A stretch of DNA of 10,266 nucleotides from an uncultured archaeon (lineage in GTDB: Archaea; Asgardarchaeota; Thorarchaeia; Thorarchaeales; Thorarchaeaceae), in the NCBI GenBank assembly GCA_964473825.1, contig CAYYQL010000063.1, forward strand, positions 1-10,266. Reading direction: 5' to 3'. Under the pieces are notes generated by a model. That model made no database searches. It saw nothing but the letters and a program-made list of their open reading frames with translations, and was not told the origin of the DNA. Within the stretch, counting starts at the first letter, position 1. Each line of letters begins with the position of its first letter. This document shows, piece by piece, positions 2,500 through 10,266 of the stretch. A program made the translations under genes and the position numbers.

Positions 2500-3804
2500 C
2501 TAGCAATGATAGAATGGAACGTGGCTCTCCTTCTTTGGAAAGAGTGTTTCGACCAGCCCCCGTATTCTACCACTCACGATGAAGTCCGAATTCATCTCGC
2601 TTAGTTCCTTTACACTATTATGGCCAAGCAAGAGCCTGACGAAGTCCTGACGCATGCTTCTGAATTCAGTATGCTTGTCGTGCCCTTGGAAGCCGATATT
2701 CTCCACAGATGTGATTTGTCCCTCAACAACGCGGAGTACGTAGCAGTCACGATAGGTGTTTATGGCGAACTCTCTCGTGAGAAACTCATACATCGTGCCT
2801 TCCAGGCGTTTCTTAAGAATCGGAGCCGCCTTTTTCAGGAAATTGGTCACATCAGGAATCCTGACTTGGTAACGCCAGCCACGACTCATCTGCCCTCCTA
2901 AGTCTAGACCGACTTGGCTCATATTACAGACCTGAGTTCCTGGAAGGGCAATGTTACAGACATCATTATCCTTTGCCAAATCACGAACATGGACAAGTGC
3001 ACGTAAGACACCGGGATAGCTGCGTATACTGCTCTCTAGGATATCAACAAGGTGAATGCTCTCGGCGTCTTTCTCTCGGCGAAGTGTAACACGGAAATAG
3101 CCTACAATCCCGCCAGCATCCTCCAATACGTAGGTGCTGAAGGGCTGTGCATATTCTTTTTGATTCGTTTCTTGTTGCTCCCATAGAAGCTTTGACCGAT
3201 TTGAGCTGATAAGAAGGCGGTCACAGAACTGTTCATAGAGTACTATCATATGCGGGATGTCATCAGTGGTTGCGTGCCGAATCTTGAGGGACATAAGATT
3301 GGGAAAGTCGTCTACGGAGGTATCCGGAATCTGATCTGGTCTTATGTAGACACTACGTCCCAGAGGAATGATGAAATCGTAGTCGAATTGACGATAGAAG
3401 AAGGGGACCCCCATAATAGTGGAGATGTCGTAGTTGCCTTCTCTCAGAACTCTGTCGAAGTACTGATACAGAAGCGCCACGAGGCCCTTTCGCCTGTACT
3501 CTTCAGTGGTTCCGACAAAGCCCAGCTCCAGGTTCCTAAGTGGGATGCCTTCGTAGGACCAGACACTGGGAATTGAATTGAGAGAGGAAACAATCTTGCC
3601 GCTGTCACTCTCACGAATGTAGTAGTTCATCTCCCTGCCAAACCCTGGGAGACATTCAATCATTCGACGAAGGGATTCACCATCCTCATCTCCGTGAATG
3701 GCGACATTGAACTCGATTAGCTGCTCCTGTTCCTCGTCGGTTTCCACAACGCCGAACTCTAGACCGTCGGGGATATCTAACCCATCAATGTTTTTCACGG
3801 TCAT
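2500..3804 (-). CDS. Eis-like GNAT acetyltransferase (GNAT-GNAT-SCP2-like architecture)
   Basis: VGTTEEYRRKGLV motif A, GVPFFYRQFDY, a second GNAT-like domain (GIVGYFR) and an SCP2-like C-terminus (DFVRLLLG...LVETLFP). Start set at ATG 3804, after GGAGATGA. Confidence 0.85.
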   Translation of the reverse strand: MTVKNIDGLDIPDGLEFGVVETDEEQEQLIEFNVAIHGDEDGESLRRMIECLPGFGREMNYYIRESDSGKIVSSLNSIPSVWSYEGIPLRNLELGFVGTTEEYRRKGLVALLYQYFDRVLREGNYDISTIMGVPFFYRQFDYDFIIPLGRSVYIRPDQIPDTSVDDFPNLMSLKIRHATTDDIPHMIVLYEQFCDRLLISSNRSKLLWEQQETNQKEYAQPFSTYVLEDAGGIVGYFRVTLRREKDAESIHLVDILESSIRSYPGVLRALVHVRDLAKDNDVCNIALPGTQVCNMSQVGLDLGGQMSRGWRYQVRIPDVTNFLKKAAPILKKRLEGTMYEFLTREFAINTYRDCYVLRVVEGQITSVENIGFQGHDKHTEFRSMRQDFVRLLLGHNSVKELSEMNSDFIVSGRIRGLVETLFPKKESHVPFYHC

Positions 3805-3878
3805 GATAGACTCATCTCCATGAGTGTCCCGACCATCACATCTCTGCTTAAGAAGCATGTGAAGAAGACCGCATCGTA

Positions 3879-4550
3879 TCAGCTAGCCTTCAGGTAGTAA
3901 TCACATAGATTCGTGAGGGGGCAGACCTGGCACCGAGGGGAATTCCTGAGACACACTAATGCGACAAGGTCAATCATTCCCCAGTATAGCCGCTTGTCGT
4001 GGTCGGGATGCCCAATATGGCTAACCAGCGTCCAGATGGCTTCATCATCAGGAGAATCTGCCTCAAGACCGAAGAATCGTGAAACTAGATGAGCAATGTT
4101 ACTGTCCACCATGGGCACAGACTCACCGAAGGCGAAATTGAGAATTGCTGCAGCGCTATAACGTCCGAGTCCCGGAAGCGTGCACAAGATATCATAATCA
4201 TCTGGTACCTCTCCTCCATGTTCATCTTGGATTATCTTTGAGGTTTGAGATAGATGCGTTGCCCGGACTCTCTGGAGACCTAAGCCCTCAACCGCCCCCT
4301 GAATCTCATCCAGCTCGGCCTGTGCTAGTTCCTTGATACAGCTGAACTCGTCAAGGAAAGGCGTGTATTTCCGTTCTACGGCCGTGGCCGTGGTGCGCCG
4401 CAGAAGCATCTCGGCAATTAGAATACGATATGGTGTTGTATCTTCACGCCATGGGTATTCACGGCCATTATCAACAAACCAGGAAACGACAGACTCCCTG
4501 AATCTGCCAAGAGTCTTCTCATCGGGTATTTCCACAGAAGGCAATCTCAT
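3879..4550 (-). CDS. mig: HhH-GPD DNA glycosylase, Mig type (T/U:G mismatch), MutY-related, with 4Fe-4S cluster
   Basis: YPWR; AEMLLRRTTA (Mig-type LLRRT rather than MutY LQQT); HhH LPGLGRYSA with Tyr at the Nth lyase-Lys position; catalytic Asp in VDSN; C-X6-C-X2-C-X5-C. No MutT-like C-terminal domain. Confidence 0.8.
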   Translation of the reverse strand: MRLPSVEIPDEKTLGRFRESVVSWFVDNGREYPWREDTTPYRILIAEMLLRRTTATAVERKYTPFLDEFSCIKELAQAELDEIQGAVEGLGLQRVRATHLSQTSKIIQDEHGGEVPDDYDILCTLPGLGRYSAAAILNFAFGESVPMVDSNIAHLVSRFFGLEADSPDDEAIWTLVSHIGHPDHDKRLYWGMIDLVALVCLRNSPRCQVCPLTNLCDYYLKAS

Positions 4551-4566: not shown

Positions 4567-5985
4567 TCAAGTCATATAACGGGAGAGGTCTAGCTGATAT
4601 GGGTCGATCTCCCAGTCGCCACGTCCGTAGGACCACTCTGTGGCGAAGTCGGTCGCTCCTCGCGATCCTTTCACTCTTACAGTCATGATTGGTTGAACCA
4701 GATCGATATCGGGGCGTTCTTCTAGATGCTTGAATGTATTATAGTATTGGACTTGATGTTTTCCAGGAACGGTCAACCACACGATTATTCCCTCAGCCGA
4801 CAGGAAATAGGTGGCTTGTGGTACAAGAGTCAGAATACGAAGGATGTAATCCCGGCCATGTTCATTGCATATTATCTCGAAACAGAAACTAGAGTCGAGT
4901 CCTAGTCCATCGAAGCTGATGTAGGGTAAGACGATTCCCTGTTTCTTAAGCCGCCGCACAACCGCGCCCACCTCCACCGCATTAAAATCGAGTCCTCTTG
5001 TCCGAAGATTTCTCGCTAATTCACTAGGTGGTGCGCGGTAGTCAAGTTTCAATTGGCTACCGACCACAAAATCGACGGGTGAGAATCCTTCAATTGGACC
5101 ACGACATCTGAGCATATAACGGTCAAGGCTCTCCAATGGAATCTCTCCACCCTTATGGAACCCCAAGTGTTCGGAGATAACCCACTCATTGTTGTTGAAG
5201 AGACTGAAATTGTACCTCTGGCCTGTCGCTTGCTGCACGTGGATAGTTGCGTAATCGAAGATGTTATGCGTGAGCTTGGAAACACTACGACTGAAAGCTG
5301 AAATCCGTTCTTCTCCTCCCGGAAACAGAAATGTCGCGTAGCCCAAATCGGTCATTGTCGTCTTCAGAATGGTTTTTGTGAAGGGAAAGTGAGCCAGACC
5401 CATCTCTATGTTCGGCCAGTCAGCGCCATCTTGTAACCTAAAGAATACTACGACTGAATTTATCCCAAAAGCGGTCGTATCTAAGAAACAAGAAAATCGG
5501 AGGTATAGCCGTTCTGTTAGACGCTTCAGGGATCGCGTTACAGTACGAGATGAAACGCCAAGATGGGAAGAAGCATCGGCTGTTGACGAGTCCGGATTCT
5601 TGGCAAAATATGCGAGGGTATTGAGGTCATTGGCTGCAATCGGGGTTTCGGGCATTAAGAATGCAAAGGTCAGCGCAGACCTCACGGAATCGGCATTGTT
5701 GAGGTTATACTTCTTGAGTGTTCTCAGGTTGTCGATGATTCTCTCTTTCACAACCTCGTTCAGAGGAATGGTAGTGGGATTGAAGGGATACTTTGTGTAT
5801 TCGGGGTTCTCCTTGAGCTCTGAAACCCCCTTGGAGGCAAGATCGAAAGATATAGTCCCGGAACACAGACCGAGATAGATGCGGATGGCATCAAGATAGA
5901 AGCTCACGGTTTCATCGTTTGTGGTGGGGACTATATCGTCGTAGGGTGTCACAATTTGTGACAATGCATCGCGTTTGGTATCCAC
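4567..5985 (-). CDS. Large Lrp/AsnC-like winged-HTH protein with duplicated HTH + RAM-like modules and an N-terminal extension
   Basis: HTH1 LNTLAYFAKNPDSSTADASSHLGVSSRTVTRSLKRL, then LDTTAFG. HTH2 DYRAPPSELARNL...VVRRLKKQGIV, then ISFDGLG. Start likely GTG 5985 after AAGGTG; the ORF track gives 5997. Confidence 0.75.
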   Translation of the reverse strand: MDTKRDALSQIVTPYDDIVPTTNDETVSFYLDAIRIYLGLCSGTISFDLASKGVSELKENPEYTKYPFNPTTIPLNEVVKERIIDNLRTLKKYNLNNADSVRSALTFAFLMPETPIAANDLNTLAYFAKNPDSSTADASSHLGVSSRTVTRSLKRLTERLYLRFSCFLDTTAFGINSVVVFFRLQDGADWPNIEMGLAHFPFTKTILKTTMTDLGYATFLFPGGEERISAFSRSVSKLTHNIFDYATIHVQQATGQRYNFSLFNNNEWVISEHLGFHKGGEIPLESLDRYMLRCRGPIEGFSPVDFVVGSQLKLDYRAPPSELARNLRTRGLDFNAVEVGAVVRRLKKQGIVLPYISFDGLGLDSSFCFEIICNEHGRDYILRILTLVPQATYFLSAEGIIVWLTVPGKHQVQYYNTFKHLEERPDIDLVQPIMTVRVKGSRGATDFATEWSYGRGDWEIDPYQLDLSRYMT

Positions 5986-6022
5986 GTGGTGTCCCACCTT
6001 GGTTAGGACGCTGCTATACTGA

Positions 6023-7075
6023 TCAAAAGAGGTACGGCAGAATGTCCTTCAATCCTTTTCTTATAATCCGTGCTTCCGTTATGAATGTAGATACTTGCGC
6101 GTCTGACTTAAGCATGTTGGATAGCGAAATTGATAGCCCAAACCAATCAGAGGCACTAGGTAGGCTGATATCCACTGCCATAAGTCGACTCCCCGAGAGA
6201 ATCCTAGCTCTTGGCAATAGATGCCCCTGAGTGTGCAGGAGTCGTGAAACGCTGCTGCCCCTAGTAAGGTCATTGACACAAGTAACGATACTTGGTCCGA
6301 GTCCTATGTTCTGAATCTCTATGTAGGGACGAGCCAGCCGTTCTCTATAATCAGAGAGCCTTCTTCGGATTGTCCTGAGGGAGGGGGGCGAAAGCCCAAG
6401 AGTGAGCATATAATCATAGACCTGAGCAGCACCGGAGTAGTAATCACTCTCAAGGCACGCTCCAGTTGCATGAATATCGGCTGAAACTCCTCTCGAAGGC
6501 CCCTGGTCGAGTGGAGCGTTAGCTGGAAGGATCTCTGAGAACTCCCGTGCTGCGTCGATTGATGCCTCAAACCTGAAATCAGTCGCGAAGTTCCAGCTAT
6601 TGCCATTGAAGAGCCCAAGGTTCAGGTGTTCGGTGATGGTCGAAACAGGTTCGCATTCGATATTCAGATTATAGGGGCGCTTCTCAAACCTGGCCAGTTT
6701 CTCCAAGAAATTGGAATGGTGCCGTCCAAGAGGCAAGAGTACTTCGAAATACACTCTCTCGTCCGTCTTGGTACTCATGAGCGCGTCTGCCTTGGCTATA
6801 ACAAACGGATTTGCATCAAGCCATCTGGAGAACTTCTCAACGGCAGCTGCATCTTCCTCACTCCATACCCAACCAATAAGTATCGAGAAGCCAAGGACGT
6901 AGTAGTCCAGAAGACAGCGAACACGGAGACTCCTTTCATCCACTAATCGATTCCATATCTGGCTTACCGCAGACCGGCTGACACCAAGCTGTTCTGCAAT
7001 ACCAACCTGTCTCTCTGTAGGGTTGATTGCCAAGCGCCTCAGCACTCGAAGCTCAGAAGGACCAAGAGGTTTCAA
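6023..7075 (-). CDS. Lrp/AsnC-like winged-HTH protein with duplicated modules; paralog of the downstream gene
   Basis: N-terminal HTH ELRVLRRLAINPTERQVGIAEQLGVSRSAVSQIWNRL, then LDYYVLG. Second HTH-like SLRTIRRRL...IQNIGLG. TTG start. Confidence 0.78.
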   Translation of the reverse strand: MKPLGPSELRVLRRLAINPTERQVGIAEQLGVSRSAVSQIWNRLVDERSLRVRCLLDYYVLGFSILIGWVWSEEDAAAVEKFSRWLDANPFVIAKADALMSTKTDERVYFEVLLPLGRHHSNFLEKLARFEKRPYNLNIECEPVSTITEHLNLGLFNGNSWNFATDFRFEASIDAAREFSEILPANAPLDQGPSRGVSADIHATGACLESDYYSGAAQVYDYMLTLGLSPPSLRTIRRRLSDYRERLARPYIEIQNIGLGPSIVTCVNDLTRGSSVSRLLHTQGHLLPRARILSGSRLMAVDISLPSASDWFGLSISLSNMLKSDAQVSTFITEARIIRKGLKDILPYLF

Positions 7076-7106
7076 GTCAAGTCATATCAGGATACTCGTG
7101 GCCACT

Positions 7107-7118
7107 TGTTAAGATTTT
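7107..7118 (-). promoter_or_regulatory. Putative BRE/TATA promoter for the regulator operon
   Basis: Minus strand reads AAAATCTTAACA about 35 nt upstream of the TTG at 7075. Confidence 0.4.
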
Positions 7119-7235
7119 GGGTCGAGAAATCGTCAGGATTTTCGGTCCTGCGAGCCAACTTCACGAGAGCGAGCTCCCCCATGCAGAAGAATGGAGACAG
7201 AAGGCTTGGAATATCGATTTTTCGTACCCCGCTTC

Positions 7236-7244
7236 TTTTATTTA
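7236..7244 (+). promoter_or_regulatory. Putative TATA box for the micropeptide transcript
   Basis: TTTTATTTA. Predicted TSS about 7265-7272, just before the first leader hairpin. Confidence 0.5.
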
Positions 7245-7276
7245 GGACCTAGCCCCCATATACTTGTCAGTTGTAA

Positions 7277-7389
7277 ATGGAGTCCGACGAAGAACGGTCT
7301 CTATGAAGTGTTGCGCAAATGAAAGCCACACAGCTTCAGTGTGGACACTTAGATACCTGACCATCTGGCGGAAAAAGGCCAGGAGGTGA
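7277..7389 (+). promoter_or_regulatory. Structured 5' leader: three consecutive stems, the last sequestering SD AGGAGGTGA
   Basis: H1 ATGGAG-T-CCG/CGG-T-CTCTAT (7277-7304). H2 AAGTGT/ACACTT (7306-7350) enclosing CCACAC/GTGTGG. H3 ACC-A-TCTGGC/GCCAGG-A-GGT (7360-7387). Confidence 0.5.
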
Positions 7390-7394
7390 ATACA

Positions 7395-7529
7395 ATCAGC
7401 GCCGCAAGTATGCGAGAAGTGTACGAGTCTTTGACAGAGAGTCGTATCGTTCTCGAGCTCTGTGCAAAGGGTGTCGGTGATCTATCGACCATCGTACAAC
7501 CTCCATGCGAAGATCCTTGTCCTTTCTAG
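7395..7529 (+). CDS. Micropeptide 1: (M)SAASMREVYESLTESRIVLELCAKGVGDLSTIVQPPCEDPCPF (44 aa from ATC 7395, or 39 aa from ATG 7410)
   Basis: Perfect SD AGGAGGTGA at 7381-7389 and an open frame to TAG 7527-7529. Its C-terminal motif is shared with micropeptide 2. Confidence 0.6.
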   Translation: MSAASMREVYESLTESRIVLELCAKGVGDLSTIVQPPCEDPCPF

Positions 7530-7594
7530 ACTTCAGCTTTTGCTACGAGGAGACTGAGGTCGGGAAAGGTCAGCTGACGGCGTTGACTGGCCGT
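7517..7594 (+). other. Structured RNA spacer overlapping the stop of micropeptide 1, with competing helices
   Basis: CCTTTCT-A-GACTTCAG (7521-7536) pairs with CTGAGGTC-G-GGAAAGG (7554-7569). Alternatives are GGTCAGC/GTTGACT (7568-7588) and ACGGC/GCCGT (7577-7594). G-U pairs favour the + strand. Confidence 0.55.
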
Positions 7595-7654
7595 AAGCCG
7601 GATGTATGATAACATCGACTTACAGCAACAATTCACAGGAGGATGAGAGAAAAA

Positions 7655-7693
7655 ATGAATCCGTCACAATGGGAAGAACCAGAACCATTCTAG
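7655..7693 (+). CDS. Micropeptide 2: MNPSQWEEPEPF (12 aa; 16 aa, MREKMNPSQWEEPEPF, if started at ATG 7643)
   Basis: SD-like AGGAGGATGA at 7637-7646, ATG 7655, TAG 7691-7693. Ends E-E-P-E-P-F, matching E-D-P-C-P-F of micropeptide 1. Confidence 0.45.
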   Translation: MNPSQWEEPEPF

Positions 7694-7747
7694 AACAAAT
7701 ACTTTGAGAGATGTTGAATGAACAAAGAAAATCGGAGGAAAGAGTGA

Positions 7748-7999
7748 TTGATCAGAAGTGAAAGCATCGACACGCTAGCATTCCTAGTCCAGCCTGAGAA
7801 TGGACGGGCAGTTGACCCCTTCAACGACCCTGAGATTGTCAGGTTAGTAGCAGCCAACCTTGAGATGGCAGTCCGGAACTTGATGATGGCTAATTCATCA
7901 CCGGAGTGTCTTGTGCTGACTGCAGATATCTGTAGCCACAAATTAGTTGCTGCTCCAAAGGCAGACGGAAGCATCAGTGTCACAATATATGATGAGTAG
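7748..7999 (+). CDS. Hypothetical protein, 83 aa (TTG start)
   Basis: SD GGAGG at 7734-7738. Protein-like alpha/beta pattern. No family recognised. Confidence 0.7.
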   Translation: MIRSESIDTLAFLVQPENGRAVDPFNDPEIVRLVAANLEMAVRNLMMANSSPECLVLTADICSHKLVAAPKADGSISVTIYDE

Positions 8000-8013
8000 C
8001 CAAACGTTAGACT

Positions 8014-8062
8014 TGTCACTGTGTATTGCCGTGTCCGAGTAATTGGGCCGGAAATATTGACA
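8014..8062 (+). other. Long GNRA-capped hairpin in the 3' UTR of the 83-aa gene
   Basis: TGTCA..GTATT.CCG.GTCCGA-[GTAA]-TTGGGC.CGG.AATAT.TGACA with several G-U pairs. Possible outer closure TTAGACT (8007-8013) / AGTCTAA (8078-8084). Confidence 0.5.
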
Positions 8063-8178: not shown

Positions 8179-9597
8179 ATGCAGAGGTTACAAGAAGATA
8201 AGAAAGAGGGATCAGCTACGGAGGACCGCGAACCTATCACCAGCGTCCCTCCGCACAACGAAAACGGGGAGTATATTGAGGGCAAGAACATTATTGCGTC
8301 ACTGAGAAGAGTCTTCTCGTGGCAGAACTACGTTGTCTATTTGCTTACCTCATGGACTTTCAATGCTCTGATGACTCTGGGAAATTTCTTCAACCTGTAT
8401 CTGCGGAACCTTGGCTGGGAGTACATCTTGATTGGTGCGGTCGCGAGTATCACTGGTGTGGTGGCTGCACTTTCGAGACTTGGAGGCGGATACATTGGGG
8501 ACAATTATGATAGAAGGAAACTCTCCGTCGTGGCGATGGCCATGTACGCGCTATATTACCTGCTGATTGGCATAACTGACTCCTTCATCATTGTATTCGT
8601 TTCACTCAACATCTTTGCCCTGACGAACTTGGCCAAGGGGGGTTCCACGGCCTTCATTATGGACAGTATACCGAAGAAAGATAGTGGCTTTGCGCTCTCA
8701 CTCTTTAATGCAGGGAAGGCTTTGGGAGTCATCACACTCTTGGTATTCTCAGCTCTGATTCCAGTATTTGGATTCGTTGAGAGCTTTCGGATCTTGTATC
8801 TCTTCACCGGAATTTCCCTTCTGATATGCGCTATCATACGTGACCGTCTGCTACTGCCAGCTGAGGAGAATGGGACACGAGAGAGAGCATCTTCTCTCTT
8901 CAGGGACTTCATGCAAGAGAATGCCAAGGCCGTACGACAGCTCCTTTCCGTCATCCCGGGTGTGATCCTCATTGTAATCATCGATGCGCTAAGTGATGAT
9001 ATGTTTCACTTTGGAGCTCTTATCTATTCTAACGAGATTATTGGAGTTTCAATCAGTGGAATCACTATCATCGTGCTTGTCTCCTTACTCCTTAGCGCAC
9101 CGCTTGTCTTGAAGGTCGGTCGAATGTCTGACAGAATCGGAATCAAGAAAGCAGGAATCGCTGTGTATACTCTTATGCCTGTTTCTGTATTTCTTCTCGT
9201 CCTTGCTTCTTTCGTAACCTTCTGGGGGCCCATCGAGCTGTACGCCTTGGCGGAATCGCTGTGGCCGGGCTTGGGGACGATCTTCACAGTCCCCTTTGTT
9301 GCCATTGTAATGAAAAATGTCAATGATCTGCTCTGGTGGGTTCTACTTATCACAATGGTACAGAAGTCCCTTCCACGGACGGATACAGCCAAGATGCTTG
9401 CTTGTTTCTGGTTCACGGTTTATGCAGTAAGGGCGATTGGCCCTCTGGTGGCAGGATTCATCTTCCAGTATTCCAGTCCAGTATTTCTCTTCGTCATCAT
9501 ATTCTTCATGAATCTTCTCATCTTGGGATTGATTCATCGGGGAGCCTTGAACATCAACGGAGAAGAGAAACCTGAAACAGAAAGCAAGGAAACTTAA
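8179..9597 (+). CDS. Major facilitator superfamily transporter
   Basis: About 12 hydrophobic segments, MFS motif A variants GGYIGDNYDRR and GRMSDRIGIK, and SD AGGAG at 8166-8170. Confidence 0.92.
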   Translation: MQRLQEDKKEGSATEDREPITSVPPHNENGEYIEGKNIIASLRRVFSWQNYVVYLLTSWTFNALMTLGNFFNLYLRNLGWEYILIGAVASITGVVAALSRLGGGYIGDNYDRRKLSVVAMAMYALYYLLIGITDSFIIVFVSLNIFALTNLAKGGSTAFIMDSIPKKDSGFALSLFNAGKALGVITLLVFSALIPVFGFVESFRILYLFTGISLLICAIIRDRLLLPAEENGTRERASSLFRDFMQENAKAVRQLLSVIPGVILIVIIDALSDDMFHFGALIYSNEIIGVSISGITIIVLVSLLLSAPLVLKVGRMSDRIGIKKAGIAVYTLMPVSVFLLVLASFVTFWGPIELYALAESLWPGLGTIFTVPFVAIVMKNVNDLLWWVLLITMVQKSLPRTDTAKMLACFWFTVYAVRAIGPLVAGFIFQYSSPVFLFVIIFFMNLLILGLIHRGALNINGEEKPETESKET

Positions 9598-9659
9598 GGT
9601 CTGCCTGCTGCCTCAATATGTATCGAACAGAGATACCATTCCAGATGAGGAATCCCAAG

Positions 9660-10266
9660 ATGGATTTTCAAGAGCGCGTAGAAGAGGTCATGAAACGACT
9701 GAAGAAGGCCTACCCTAATGCTCCGCCCACATACCTAGAATACAGTAATGCATTCGAGATGACAATTGCCACGATTCTCTCAGCTCACACAACTGACAAG
9801 AGTGTGAACTCAGTCACTCCAGAGCTCTTCGATAAGTATCCAGACCCGAAGACCCTGAAGGGGGCAGACCCCGACGAAGTCAAGGGAATCATCAGACCAG
9901 CGGGCATGTACAACCGGAAGACCGAGTACATCATGAAAACGGCCAAGATGCTGGTTGAAGACTTCGGAGGAGAAGTTCCAACGACCATCAAGGATCTCTC
10001 TAAGATGCCTGGCATATCACGGAAGACAGCCAATGTGATTCTTCAGACTGTGTTTGATATCAACGAGGGCGTGGTTGTTGACACACATATTCAGAGAGTC
10101 ACTCAACGCTTGGAATTCTCGGAAGAAGAACGCCCGGAGAAGATTGAGAGGGATTTGATGGAGATCCTACCCAAGGACGAATGGGACGACTATGCACGCA
10201 TAATCGGTGCTCATGGAAGAGAGATCTGTACAGCCAGATCTCCAGACTGCCCTGCCTGTCCGGTGA
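9660..10266 (+). CDS. nth: Endonuclease III (DNA glycosylase/AP lyase), truncated by the window end
   Basis: Not in the ORF track because it has no stop; translated by hand: MDFQERVEEVMKRLKKAYP...ILSAHTTDKSVN...KMPGISRKTANV...VVDTHIQRV...HGREICTARSPDCPACPV. Catalytic Lys and Asp and the start of the 4Fe-4S motif are present. In-frame upstream ATGs at 9618 and 9645. Confidence 0.93.
   Translation, partial: MDFQERVEEVMKRLKKAYPNAPPTYLEYSNAFEMTIATILSAHTTDKSVNSVTPELFDKYPDPKTLKGADPDEVKGIIRPAGMYNRKTEYIMKTAKMLVEDFGGEVPTTIKDLSKMPGISRKTANVILQTVFDINEGVVVDTHIQRVTQRLEFSEEERPEKIERDLMEILPKDEWDDYARIIGAHGREICTARSPDCPACPV

Follow-up and report, generated by a model that had tools for sequence, protein, structure and literature searches.

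Tandem-Lrp regulators paired with Pro-aromatic micropeptides: a possible peptide-based regulatory module in Asgard archaea

The locus described here lies in a 10.3-kb window, meaning the whole stretch of DNA that was analysed, on contig C63 of a 3.27-Mb Thorarchaeota (Asgard) genome. Its central part contains two adjacent genes, regA and regB, which encode predicted DNA-binding regulators and are transcribed away from an operon encoding two micropeptides (pep1 and pep2), an 83-amino-acid protein (p83), and a transporter of the major facilitator superfamily (MFS; Table 1). The original prediction, which was made from the letters of this DNA, had named the regulator pair, a TATA-like box, a structured leader, the two peptides, a structured spacer between them, the gene for the 83-amino-acid protein, and the transporter, and each of these parts was found where it had been placed. 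A further hairpin proposed to follow p83 was not upheld, since its z-score of -1.4 was no better than that of shuffled sequences.

Table 1. Features of the window, with the regulator and micropeptide genes first (aa, amino acids; SD, Shine-Dalgarno sequence; sORF, small open reading frame).
Feature	Position	Strand	Size or basis	Remarks
regA	4567-5997	-	476 aa	
regB	6023-7075	-	350 aa	
TATA-like box of the sORF operon	7236-7244	+	sequence	TTTTATTTA
Structured 5' leader	about 7268-7394	+	~125 nt; folding vs shuffles	
pep1	7395-7529	+	44 aa	ATC start; C-terminal end IVQPPCEDPCPF
Hairpin	7518-7572	+	folding vs shuffles	5' arm with last pep1 codons and stop
pep2	7655-7693	+	12 aa	MNPSQWEEPEPF; SD AGGAGGA at 7637-7643
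p83	7748-7999	+	83 aa	TTG start
MFS transporter	8179-9597	+	472 aa	Pfam MFS_1, E 9e-22
Endonuclease III gene nth	9618-10265	+		HhH-GPD type; after MFS
Second endonuclease III-like gene	3879-4550	-		HhH-GPD type; other side of cluster
GNAT protein	2500-3858	-	452 aa	Acetyltransf_9 N-terminal domain and long uncharacterised C-terminal part

The gene order is maintained throughout Thorarchaeota. The arrangement of regA-regB divergent from pep1-pep2-p83-MFS-nth is kept in 20 of 20 loci of the family, representing 16 genera, and regB adjoins regA in every one of them. p83 is present in all 24 family genomes, and the same query gave only one borderline hit in other families. A scan of one genome per GTDB species yielded 65 loci, all of them in metagenome-assembled genomes of Thorarchaeota type, with the same order wherever the flanking sequence reaches far enough. 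Co-location of the regulators, the sORFs, and the gene for the 83-amino-acid protein had been suggested as a check on the original prediction; it was borne out in the family loci, in the 65 species loci, and also in other Asgard families, as detailed below. The transporter on the same strand, which had likewise been foreseen, is conserved after p83 in the family loci, and no MFS subfamily could be assigned to it from solved structures or NCBIfam.

Searches against Pfam detected only a winged helix-turn-helix (wHTH) in each regulator (HTH_24 in regA, E 3.5e-6; MarR_2 in regB, E 9e-6), and neither Pfam nor NCBIfam gave a family beyond this domain. Homologues of regA carry public names ranging from 'DNA-binding Lrp family transcriptional regulator' through wHTH regulator to hypothetical protein. 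A profile built from 19 regA orthologues matched the full-length Lrp/AsnC protein PH1519, which consists of an HTH and a RAM domain (E 3e-5); the alignment covers PH1519 residues 3-123, and the second unit is a weak match. In the AlphaFold2 model of regA, which has a mean predicted local distance difference test score (pLDDT) of 86, a helical N-terminal domain of ~115 aa is followed by two successive units, each comprising a wHTH and a β-α-β-β-α-β RAM-type fold. regB lacks the N-terminal domain and has two wHTH plus α/β units. The two proteins align over 308 columns with 99.4% hhalign probability and are thus paralogues, as had been claimed. The top Foldseek match of the regA model in the PDB is the tandem-Lrp fusion NirDL (4ch7; E 4.5e-8, 364 columns), followed by many single Lrp/AsnC regulators, with probability 1.0 for the full-length structures 2cyy, 2p5v, and 2cg4. 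The recognition helices of the HTH domains retain, in the consensus, typical DNA-binding residues. Because the PH1519 profile match, the regA-regB alignment, the modelled fold, and the NirDL match agree, the earlier label 'double-Lrp' is considered correct, and regA and regB are predicted to be fused double-Lrp (tandem wHTH-RAM) proteins. Outside Thorarchaeota, regA-like genes often occur as two adjacent same-strand paralogues (L113, L116, L118, L120, L102, L110, L111, L114, and L128), and pairing of tandem-Lrp genes is therefore a recurrent feature.

The first gene of the operon, pep1, encodes 44-45 aa and has no conserved canonical start codon. In this genome it begins with ATC, 6 nt past GGAGGTG, and among 49 loci the in-frame start is ATT in 25, ATC in 14, and ATA in 10, located 6-9 nt after the SD sequence; an earlier start is excluded by an in-frame stop just upstream in four genera. 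The peptide is conserved throughout its length (...YESMTxNRxALELLSIGxVxGISTVVQPPCEDPxPF), and invariant columns such as V-11, P-8, and P-2 display 785-881 synonymous and 0 non-synonymous pairwise differences. Synonymous variation of this kind indicates that both pep1 and pep2 are coding. tblastn recovered pep1 in 18 of the 20 family loci; nearly all of the species loci with enough upstream sequence contain it, the exceptions being one genus (L029, L030) and L093. Neither peptide appears to carry a signal sequence, in agreement with the original prediction: pep1 has no hydrophobic N-terminus, and pep2 is acidic and proline-rich.

pep1 is missing from every public protein call set searched. No pep1 candidate was present in a set of 5.8 billion called proteins, where pep2 was not looked up; Pfam gave no match for either peptide, and the ESM Atlas gave no match and no usable pep1 hit. 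In the sampled loci, the sORFs of the module were found only by direct translation of the DNA. Two of the three small genes in this window start with a codon other than ATG, pep1 with ATC and p83 with TTG. The TTG of p83 directly follows an in-frame TGA in this genus, and most other genera have ATG. A joint metal site formed by the pep1 cysteine and a Cys-Cys-His set of p83 was considered and rejected, as one clade has lost the p83 residues yet keeps pep1.

The second peptide, pep2, is shorter (11-15 aa, most often 13) and has a biased composition, with 29% P, 11% E, and 10% D. All 53 distinct pep2 peptides have a penultimate Pro (position -2) followed by an aromatic residue (-1; W in 39, F in 13, and Y in 1); E occupies -3 in 39 of them, and P occupies -4 in 37. 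Wherever enough upstream sequence is available, an ORF of this type precedes p83 by 30-62 nt. The motif does not belong to a larger family of sORFs scattered over the genome: the sORFs of the locus are the only SD-led ORFs of at least 12 codons that end in P-x-P-[FWY], save for an unrelated 36-aa ORF, and the only other hits of the search pattern in this genome are two 7-codon ORFs.

The evolution of pep2 differs from that of its neighbours. In 80 close species pairs, chosen so that p83 is at least 80% identical, non-synonymous codon differences per codon amounted to 0.49 for pep2, 0.09 for pep1, and 0.10 for p83, and the ratio of non-synonymous to synonymous codon differences was 3.1 for pep2 and about 0.5 for pep1 and p83. 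The divergence of pep2 between species is thus ~5 times that of the neighbouring small genes. Identities of the larger proteins in these pairs were 74% for nth, 70% for MFS, 68% for regA, and 66% for regB, compared with 89% for p83. Duplicated copies behave otherwise. Two old pep2 copies in L033, and likewise in L034, show 13 differences over 42 nt, which affect 10 of 13 codons, yet both copies encode one and the same 13-mer. Duplicated pep2 ORFs in five further genomes have hardly changed, although the 40-nt sequences flanking them have diverged. By these comparisons, pep2 evolves as a specifically recognised peptide would.

The third small gene product, p83, belongs to a narrow orphan family, with 9 representatives among 1.84 billion proteins. 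It has no Pfam or NCBIfam match, and 20 members gave no Pfam hit, Robl_LC7 included. In its AlphaFold2 model (pLDDT 82), the N-terminus is disordered and is followed by a single long helix and a sheet of three strands. The top Foldseek hits were chains of the Roadblock/LC7/LAMTOR/MglB group at E 0.04-0.4, which is not significant, and VIA-align matched it to PAS, longin, and Roadblock-type domains with Z values no higher than 6.3, within the noise range of the tool and with PAS and longin ranking higher. An 836-aa protein, P0009, matches the β-hairpin region of p83 (profile positions 50-75) in ten separate stretches; it is possibly a repeat protein whose unit is a hairpin of similar kind.

Several other Asgard families also possess full-length regA-like genes, as many as six in one genome, and the regions around these genes were examined for an equivalent of the micropeptide operon. 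Twenty-eight non-Thorarchaeota loci were fetched, and the 25 regA-like genes with an hmmsearch E < 1e-30 and at least 400 nt of upstream sequence were counted. A qualifying sORF was divergent from the regulator gene, ended in P[FWY] (+0-2 residues), had at least two Pro among its last 14 residues, and had its stop 150-400 nt away. Such an sORF accompanied 18 of the 25 genes against a background expectation of 7%, for which the binomial P is 4e-16, a value to be read in light of the facts that related genomes are not independent and that the window limits were chosen after looking. The sORFs outside Thorarchaeota have 9-17 codons and encode peptides such as VNPPPLDPKPDPW, MAPRIPPKPEPW, MDGPNGGIVPW, MEPHATNPFPF, MYNPIDDPFPW, and MRDDADPIDPTPF.

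A protein of 68-116 aa directly follows the sORF in 12 of 16 modules, at a gap of +4 to +84 nt (+164 nt in L122). These proteins share the core [TS]P.T..E.[LM]R.[IV][GA]A....L, which falls in the same register as DPEIVRLVAANLEMAV of p83. No MFS gene is present in the modules of the other Asgard families examined. In one of these families (L107 8235-9026, L109 4356-5163), the pair of micropeptide and p83-like genes is followed by genes for a 118-150-aa helical protein and a CheY-like receiver, which a gelsolin-like gene adjoins. Since MFS is absent and, in one family, other genes follow instead, the conserved core consists of the regulator, the micropeptide, and the small protein, and comparison of the loci indicates that this three-part module is conserved in Asgard archaea, whereas pep1, which is longer and has the same C-terminal motif, and MFS appear as Thorarchaeota additions to it. 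Where paralogous modules occur in one genome (G115, G101, and G134), their peptides differ.

Several RNA features accompany the small genes. In other genera the TATA-like box reads CTTATTAT and lies ~190 nt before the SD sequence of pep1, as a conserved block in upstream alignments. The leader of this window (z -3.9) and the hairpin over the pep1 stop (z -4.4) fold better than expected, and none of 200 shuffles equalled either of them. The last leader stem pairs part of the pep1 SD sequence (AGGAGGTGA, 7381-7389). Behind the CTTATTAT box, the conserved leader of other genera is longer and differs from that of this window; in it a block, GGATTCACACTGCAG, was paired by RNAalifold with CTGCAGTGTGAGAG in the pep1-pep2 spacer, a predicted pairing. 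The pep1-stop hairpin occupies the same place in most of 55 loci, with an inner-stem sequence that varies by clade and a mean minimum free energy of -16.9 kcal/mol, compared with -12.4 kcal/mol for shuffled downstream sequence; the pep1 stop lies inside its 5' arm in 24 of the 55 loci, where 22% would be expected.

Further downstream, structure is less regular. A small GC hairpin between pep2 and the SD sequence of p83 is found in ~2/3 of loci, this genus not being among them; the p83 SD sequence is otherwise free, and no universal structure surrounds pep2 and p83. A scan of the + strand of the operon region for intrinsic terminators found none, and an Rfam scan of the window at E up to 1 found nothing in the leader or spacer and only a chance small-RNA hit elsewhere. 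In a group of loci from several genera (L041-L088, e.g., L068), a leader block, GGATTCACACTGCAGACTGAGCTCA, has two candidate pairing partners, namely CAGTGTG..CC just before the pep1 SD sequence or CTCTGCAGTGTGAGAG, which lies in the spacer ~450 nt further downstream. Such a choice of partners resembles an alternative, long-range RNA switch that extends across pep1, and it is not present in the genus of this window.

We tentatively favour the reading that the peptides act in trans and are recognised by their sequence over a role as cis-only arrest leaders, and give this reading, which is drawn from comparison of genomes, somewhat less than an even chance. It is suggested by the conservation of pep1 over its whole length, by paralogous pep2 copies that are kept identical while orthologues diverge at a near-neutral rate, by the occurrence of paralogue-specific peptides, and by the constancy of regulator and peptide where the downstream cargo changes. 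In the mechanism envisaged, one or two fused double-Lrp regulators, divergent from an operon that opens with a Pro-x-Pro-aromatic micropeptide followed by p83, would bind the shared intergenic promoter region. The micropeptides would be short, sequence-specific trans partners of the module's own proteins: they would dock on a conserved site through their acidic Pro-aromatic C-terminus, itself conserved, with p83 as the best-conserved candidate for the site, and their fast-evolving N-terminal part would provide lineage or paralogue specificity towards the faster-evolving regulators. Recognition of the peptide would feed back on transcription of the operon, and export of the peptide, or of a related small molecule, is a possible task of the MFS in Thorarchaeota. 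Translation of the hard-to-translate tails is likely to have a cis effect on downstream genes as well, which would be compatible with a trans role. That the two can coexist is illustrated by peTrpL of Sinorhizobium, a 14-aa leader peptide that is part of an attenuator and also acts in trans on an efflux operon (PMC7298713).

The original prediction had proposed that the peptides could be ligands or antagonists of the regulator pair. Synteny and the evolution of pep2 in the manner of a recognised peptide agree with part of this proposal; the partner could equally be p83, and a cis role fits several of the features. Other points also weigh against a trans role. The argument from identical paralogues comes from one lineage, comprising two sister species. 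p83 and its small counterparts in other families match poorly when their profiles are compared (hhalign P 0.003, probability 11%), so that homology between them is probable. No RNA data are listed among the public runs. Finally, several properties are those expected of an arrest leader: the peptide genes stand first in the operon, pep1 starts with a codon other than AUG, the composition is rich in D, E, and P, the Pro-aromatic-stop ending is strict, and a conserved hairpin covers the stop of pep1.

These last features form the basis of the strongest competing explanation, to which we assign a substantial minority weight, i.e., that the peptides are exclusively cis-acting arrest leaders and have no function of their own. 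A ribosome would slow or stall on the D/E/P-rich tail and the Pro-aromatic-stop sequence, and its position would determine RNA folding or coupling and hence the expression of p83, as well as that of MFS in Thorarchaeota. How fast this happens would be set by aIF5A activity, polyamines, Mg2+, proline, or a free aromatic amino acid. In every family a long structured leader contains the sORFs, immediately ahead of the p83-like gene, the invariant Pro at -2 stands in a composition rich in P, E, and D, and the AUH start of pep1 is conserved in its spacing from the SD sequence and is accompanied by the stop hairpin. Close precedents exist for these properties: the 'EPDP' motif of MgtL causes intrinsic ribosome destabilisation within a short ORF (bioRxiv 10.1101/2021.02.02.429294), and the AUU-initiated upstream ORF (uORF) of AZIN1 has a C-terminal PPW that stalls at high polyamines (PMC9082881). 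However, conservation of pep1 extends across its full 44 residues, as in a small folded protein, and a function confined to the ribosome tunnel does not predict identical pep2 copies in spite of 10 synonymous codon differences when orthologues drift near-neutrally. In addition, nothing sequesters the p83 SD sequence, and ~1/3 of loci, including this one, lack the hairpin after pep2. Moreover, the downstream cargo varies between families while peptide and regulator stay.

A more ambitious form of the trans reading regards these loci as paralogue-expanded peptide-receptor cassettes of Asgard archaea, each pairing a double-Lrp receptor with a cognate, ribosomally made Pro-aromatic micropeptide of ~9-17 residues and a Roadblock-like adaptor, with MFS as the exporter in Thorarchaeota and cell-cell signalling as a possible outcome. 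We consider this unlikely as a whole.

A conventional arrangement would make the sORF products and p83 independent small proteins, e.g., transporter subunits or chaperones, under the control of an amino-acid-sensing Lrp protein and without any peptide feedback. Lrp regulators are commonly divergent from exporter operons and RAM domains bind free amino acids (PMC2995911), and MFS follows in all Thorarchaeota loci. Other Asgard families nevertheless keep the regulator, the peptide, and the small protein without MFS, and rapid, paralogue-specific divergence would be unusual for a structural subunit, which together make this explanation distinctly doubtful. We find it harder still to regard the peptides as precursors of a ribosomally synthesised and post-translationally modified peptide (RiPP), or of a released Pro-aromatic dipeptide or diketopiperazine, that MFS would export in Thorarchaeota and RAM would sense. 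Several precursor-like genes do share a C-terminal motif beside a transporter in Thorarchaeota, and pep1 has a conserved 'leader-like' N-terminal part and a conserved Cys; but no modifying enzyme or protease is found in the window or the conserved module, pep2 is too short for leader-guided processing, and MFS lies outside the core, so that this account is very improbable.

The suggestion that regA and regB are siroheme decarboxylase-like enzymes (NirDL/AhbAB) and not regulators can be almost entirely discounted: NirDL is the best structural match of regA and two side-by-side paralogues recall NirDL/NirGH, but regA-NirDL identity is 9-11% with a root-mean-square deviation of about 7 A, NirDL is the sole tandem-Lrp fusion among the regA Foldseek hits, so that the match may reflect architecture alone, the recognition helices keep their DNA-binding character, PF17805 (AsnC_trans_reg2) has no match in regA, regB, or the whole genome while three control archaea do match, and the locus neighbours are the sORFs, p83, MFS, endonuclease III, GNAT, and PNP, with no tetrapyrrole (heme or d1) genes among them. 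Given the lack of a PF17805 match, the ~10% identity, and the unrelated gene context, the two proteins are not filed as siroheme decarboxylases.

Among the flanking genes, the two endonuclease III-like genes on either side of the cluster are diverged (27% identical). The position of nth 3' of MFS is kept in nearly all Thorarchaeota loci, and the GNAT protein beside the upstream endonuclease III gene is conserved within the genus only.

No description of this module, or of micropeptide-regulator pairs in Asgard archaea, was found in the literature, and we know of no dedicated regulator-micropeptide gene pairs in archaea. As the module recurs across Asgard archaea, it is a possible peptide-based regulatory cassette, and cassettes of that sort have not been described in archaea. 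Should the peptides be ligands, peptide sensing would join the repertoire of Lrp/RAM proteins, and Asgard archaea, the closest prokaryotic relatives of eukaryotes, would gain a form of short-linear-motif regulation with a Roadblock-like partner. If they are instead arrest peptides, the locus would provide an archaeal leader-peptide sensor with a non-AUG start and a Pro-aromatic-stop, parallel to the polyamine-sensing uORFs of eukaryotes. In either case, short synthetic peptides, small proteins, and a defined promoter region make the module directly testable.

The components of the module can be compared with several known systems. Like other Lrp/AsnC (FFRP) proteins, the regulators combine an N-terminal wHTH with a RAM α-β sandwich; a typical member is a single unit of ~150 aa that dimerises through RAM, whereas two units are present per chain here, and regA has an extra N-terminal domain of 115 aa. 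Two Lrp-like units in one chain are also found in NirDL. The known effectors of Lrp/AsnC proteins are free amino acids and not peptides. To our knowledge, a fused two-unit Lrp protein with an N-terminal helical domain, encoded as paired paralogues, has not been described for regulators. Archaeal Lrp proteins do form hetero-assemblies (PMC2995911).

With its helix and three-stranded sheet, the p83 model can be compared with Roadblock/LC7/MglB/LAMTOR proteins, which supplied the top Foldseek hits, and Roadblock/LC7 domains are expanded in Asgard archaea (PMC10933270). The Roadblock fold is α-β-β-α-β-β-β, while p83 has neither the terminal helices nor a Pfam match nor an adjacent small GTPase, and its scores are not significant; the longer p83-like proteins of other families add N-terminal strands.

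As far as the peptides are concerned, a RiPP cluster would be expected to have its precursor beside a modifying enzyme, and the conserved module contains no enzyme. peTrpL, the precedent for coexisting cis and trans roles, is bacterial, belongs to a Trp-codon attenuator, and lacks a dedicated regulator or p83-like partner. Features shared with arrest leaders such as MgtL (EPDP), TnaC (Pro-stop), and the AZIN1 uORF are a short, D/E/P-rich ORF within a structured 5' leader, strict conservation at the C-terminus, a non-AUG start of pep1, and a hairpin at the pep1 stop. The module departs from them in the full-length conservation of pep1, in pep2 paralogues that are identical at the peptide level only, and in having neither a terminator nor an SD-sequestering alternative around pep2 and p83. 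We know of no arrest-leader system of this type in archaea.

A final comparison concerns the RRNPP and arbitrium systems (Rap-Phr, PlcR-PapR, Rgg-SHP, and AimR-AimP). RRNPP-type signalling employs a secreted pro-peptide with a signal sequence, which is processed to a signal of 5-10 aa. In the Asgard module, the peptides have 9-17 (or 44) aa and neither a signal sequence nor a pro-region, the putative receptor is a tandem Lrp/AsnC protein with a helical N-domain in which no TPR was detected by Pfam or Foldseek, and the core module, which is archaeal, has a third conserved partner of p83 type and no machinery for secretion or re-import. The likeness lies in the genetic organisation: in both, a regulator gene adjoins a very small peptide gene, the peptide sequences differ between lineages and paralogues, and a genome may hold several cassettes with different peptides.

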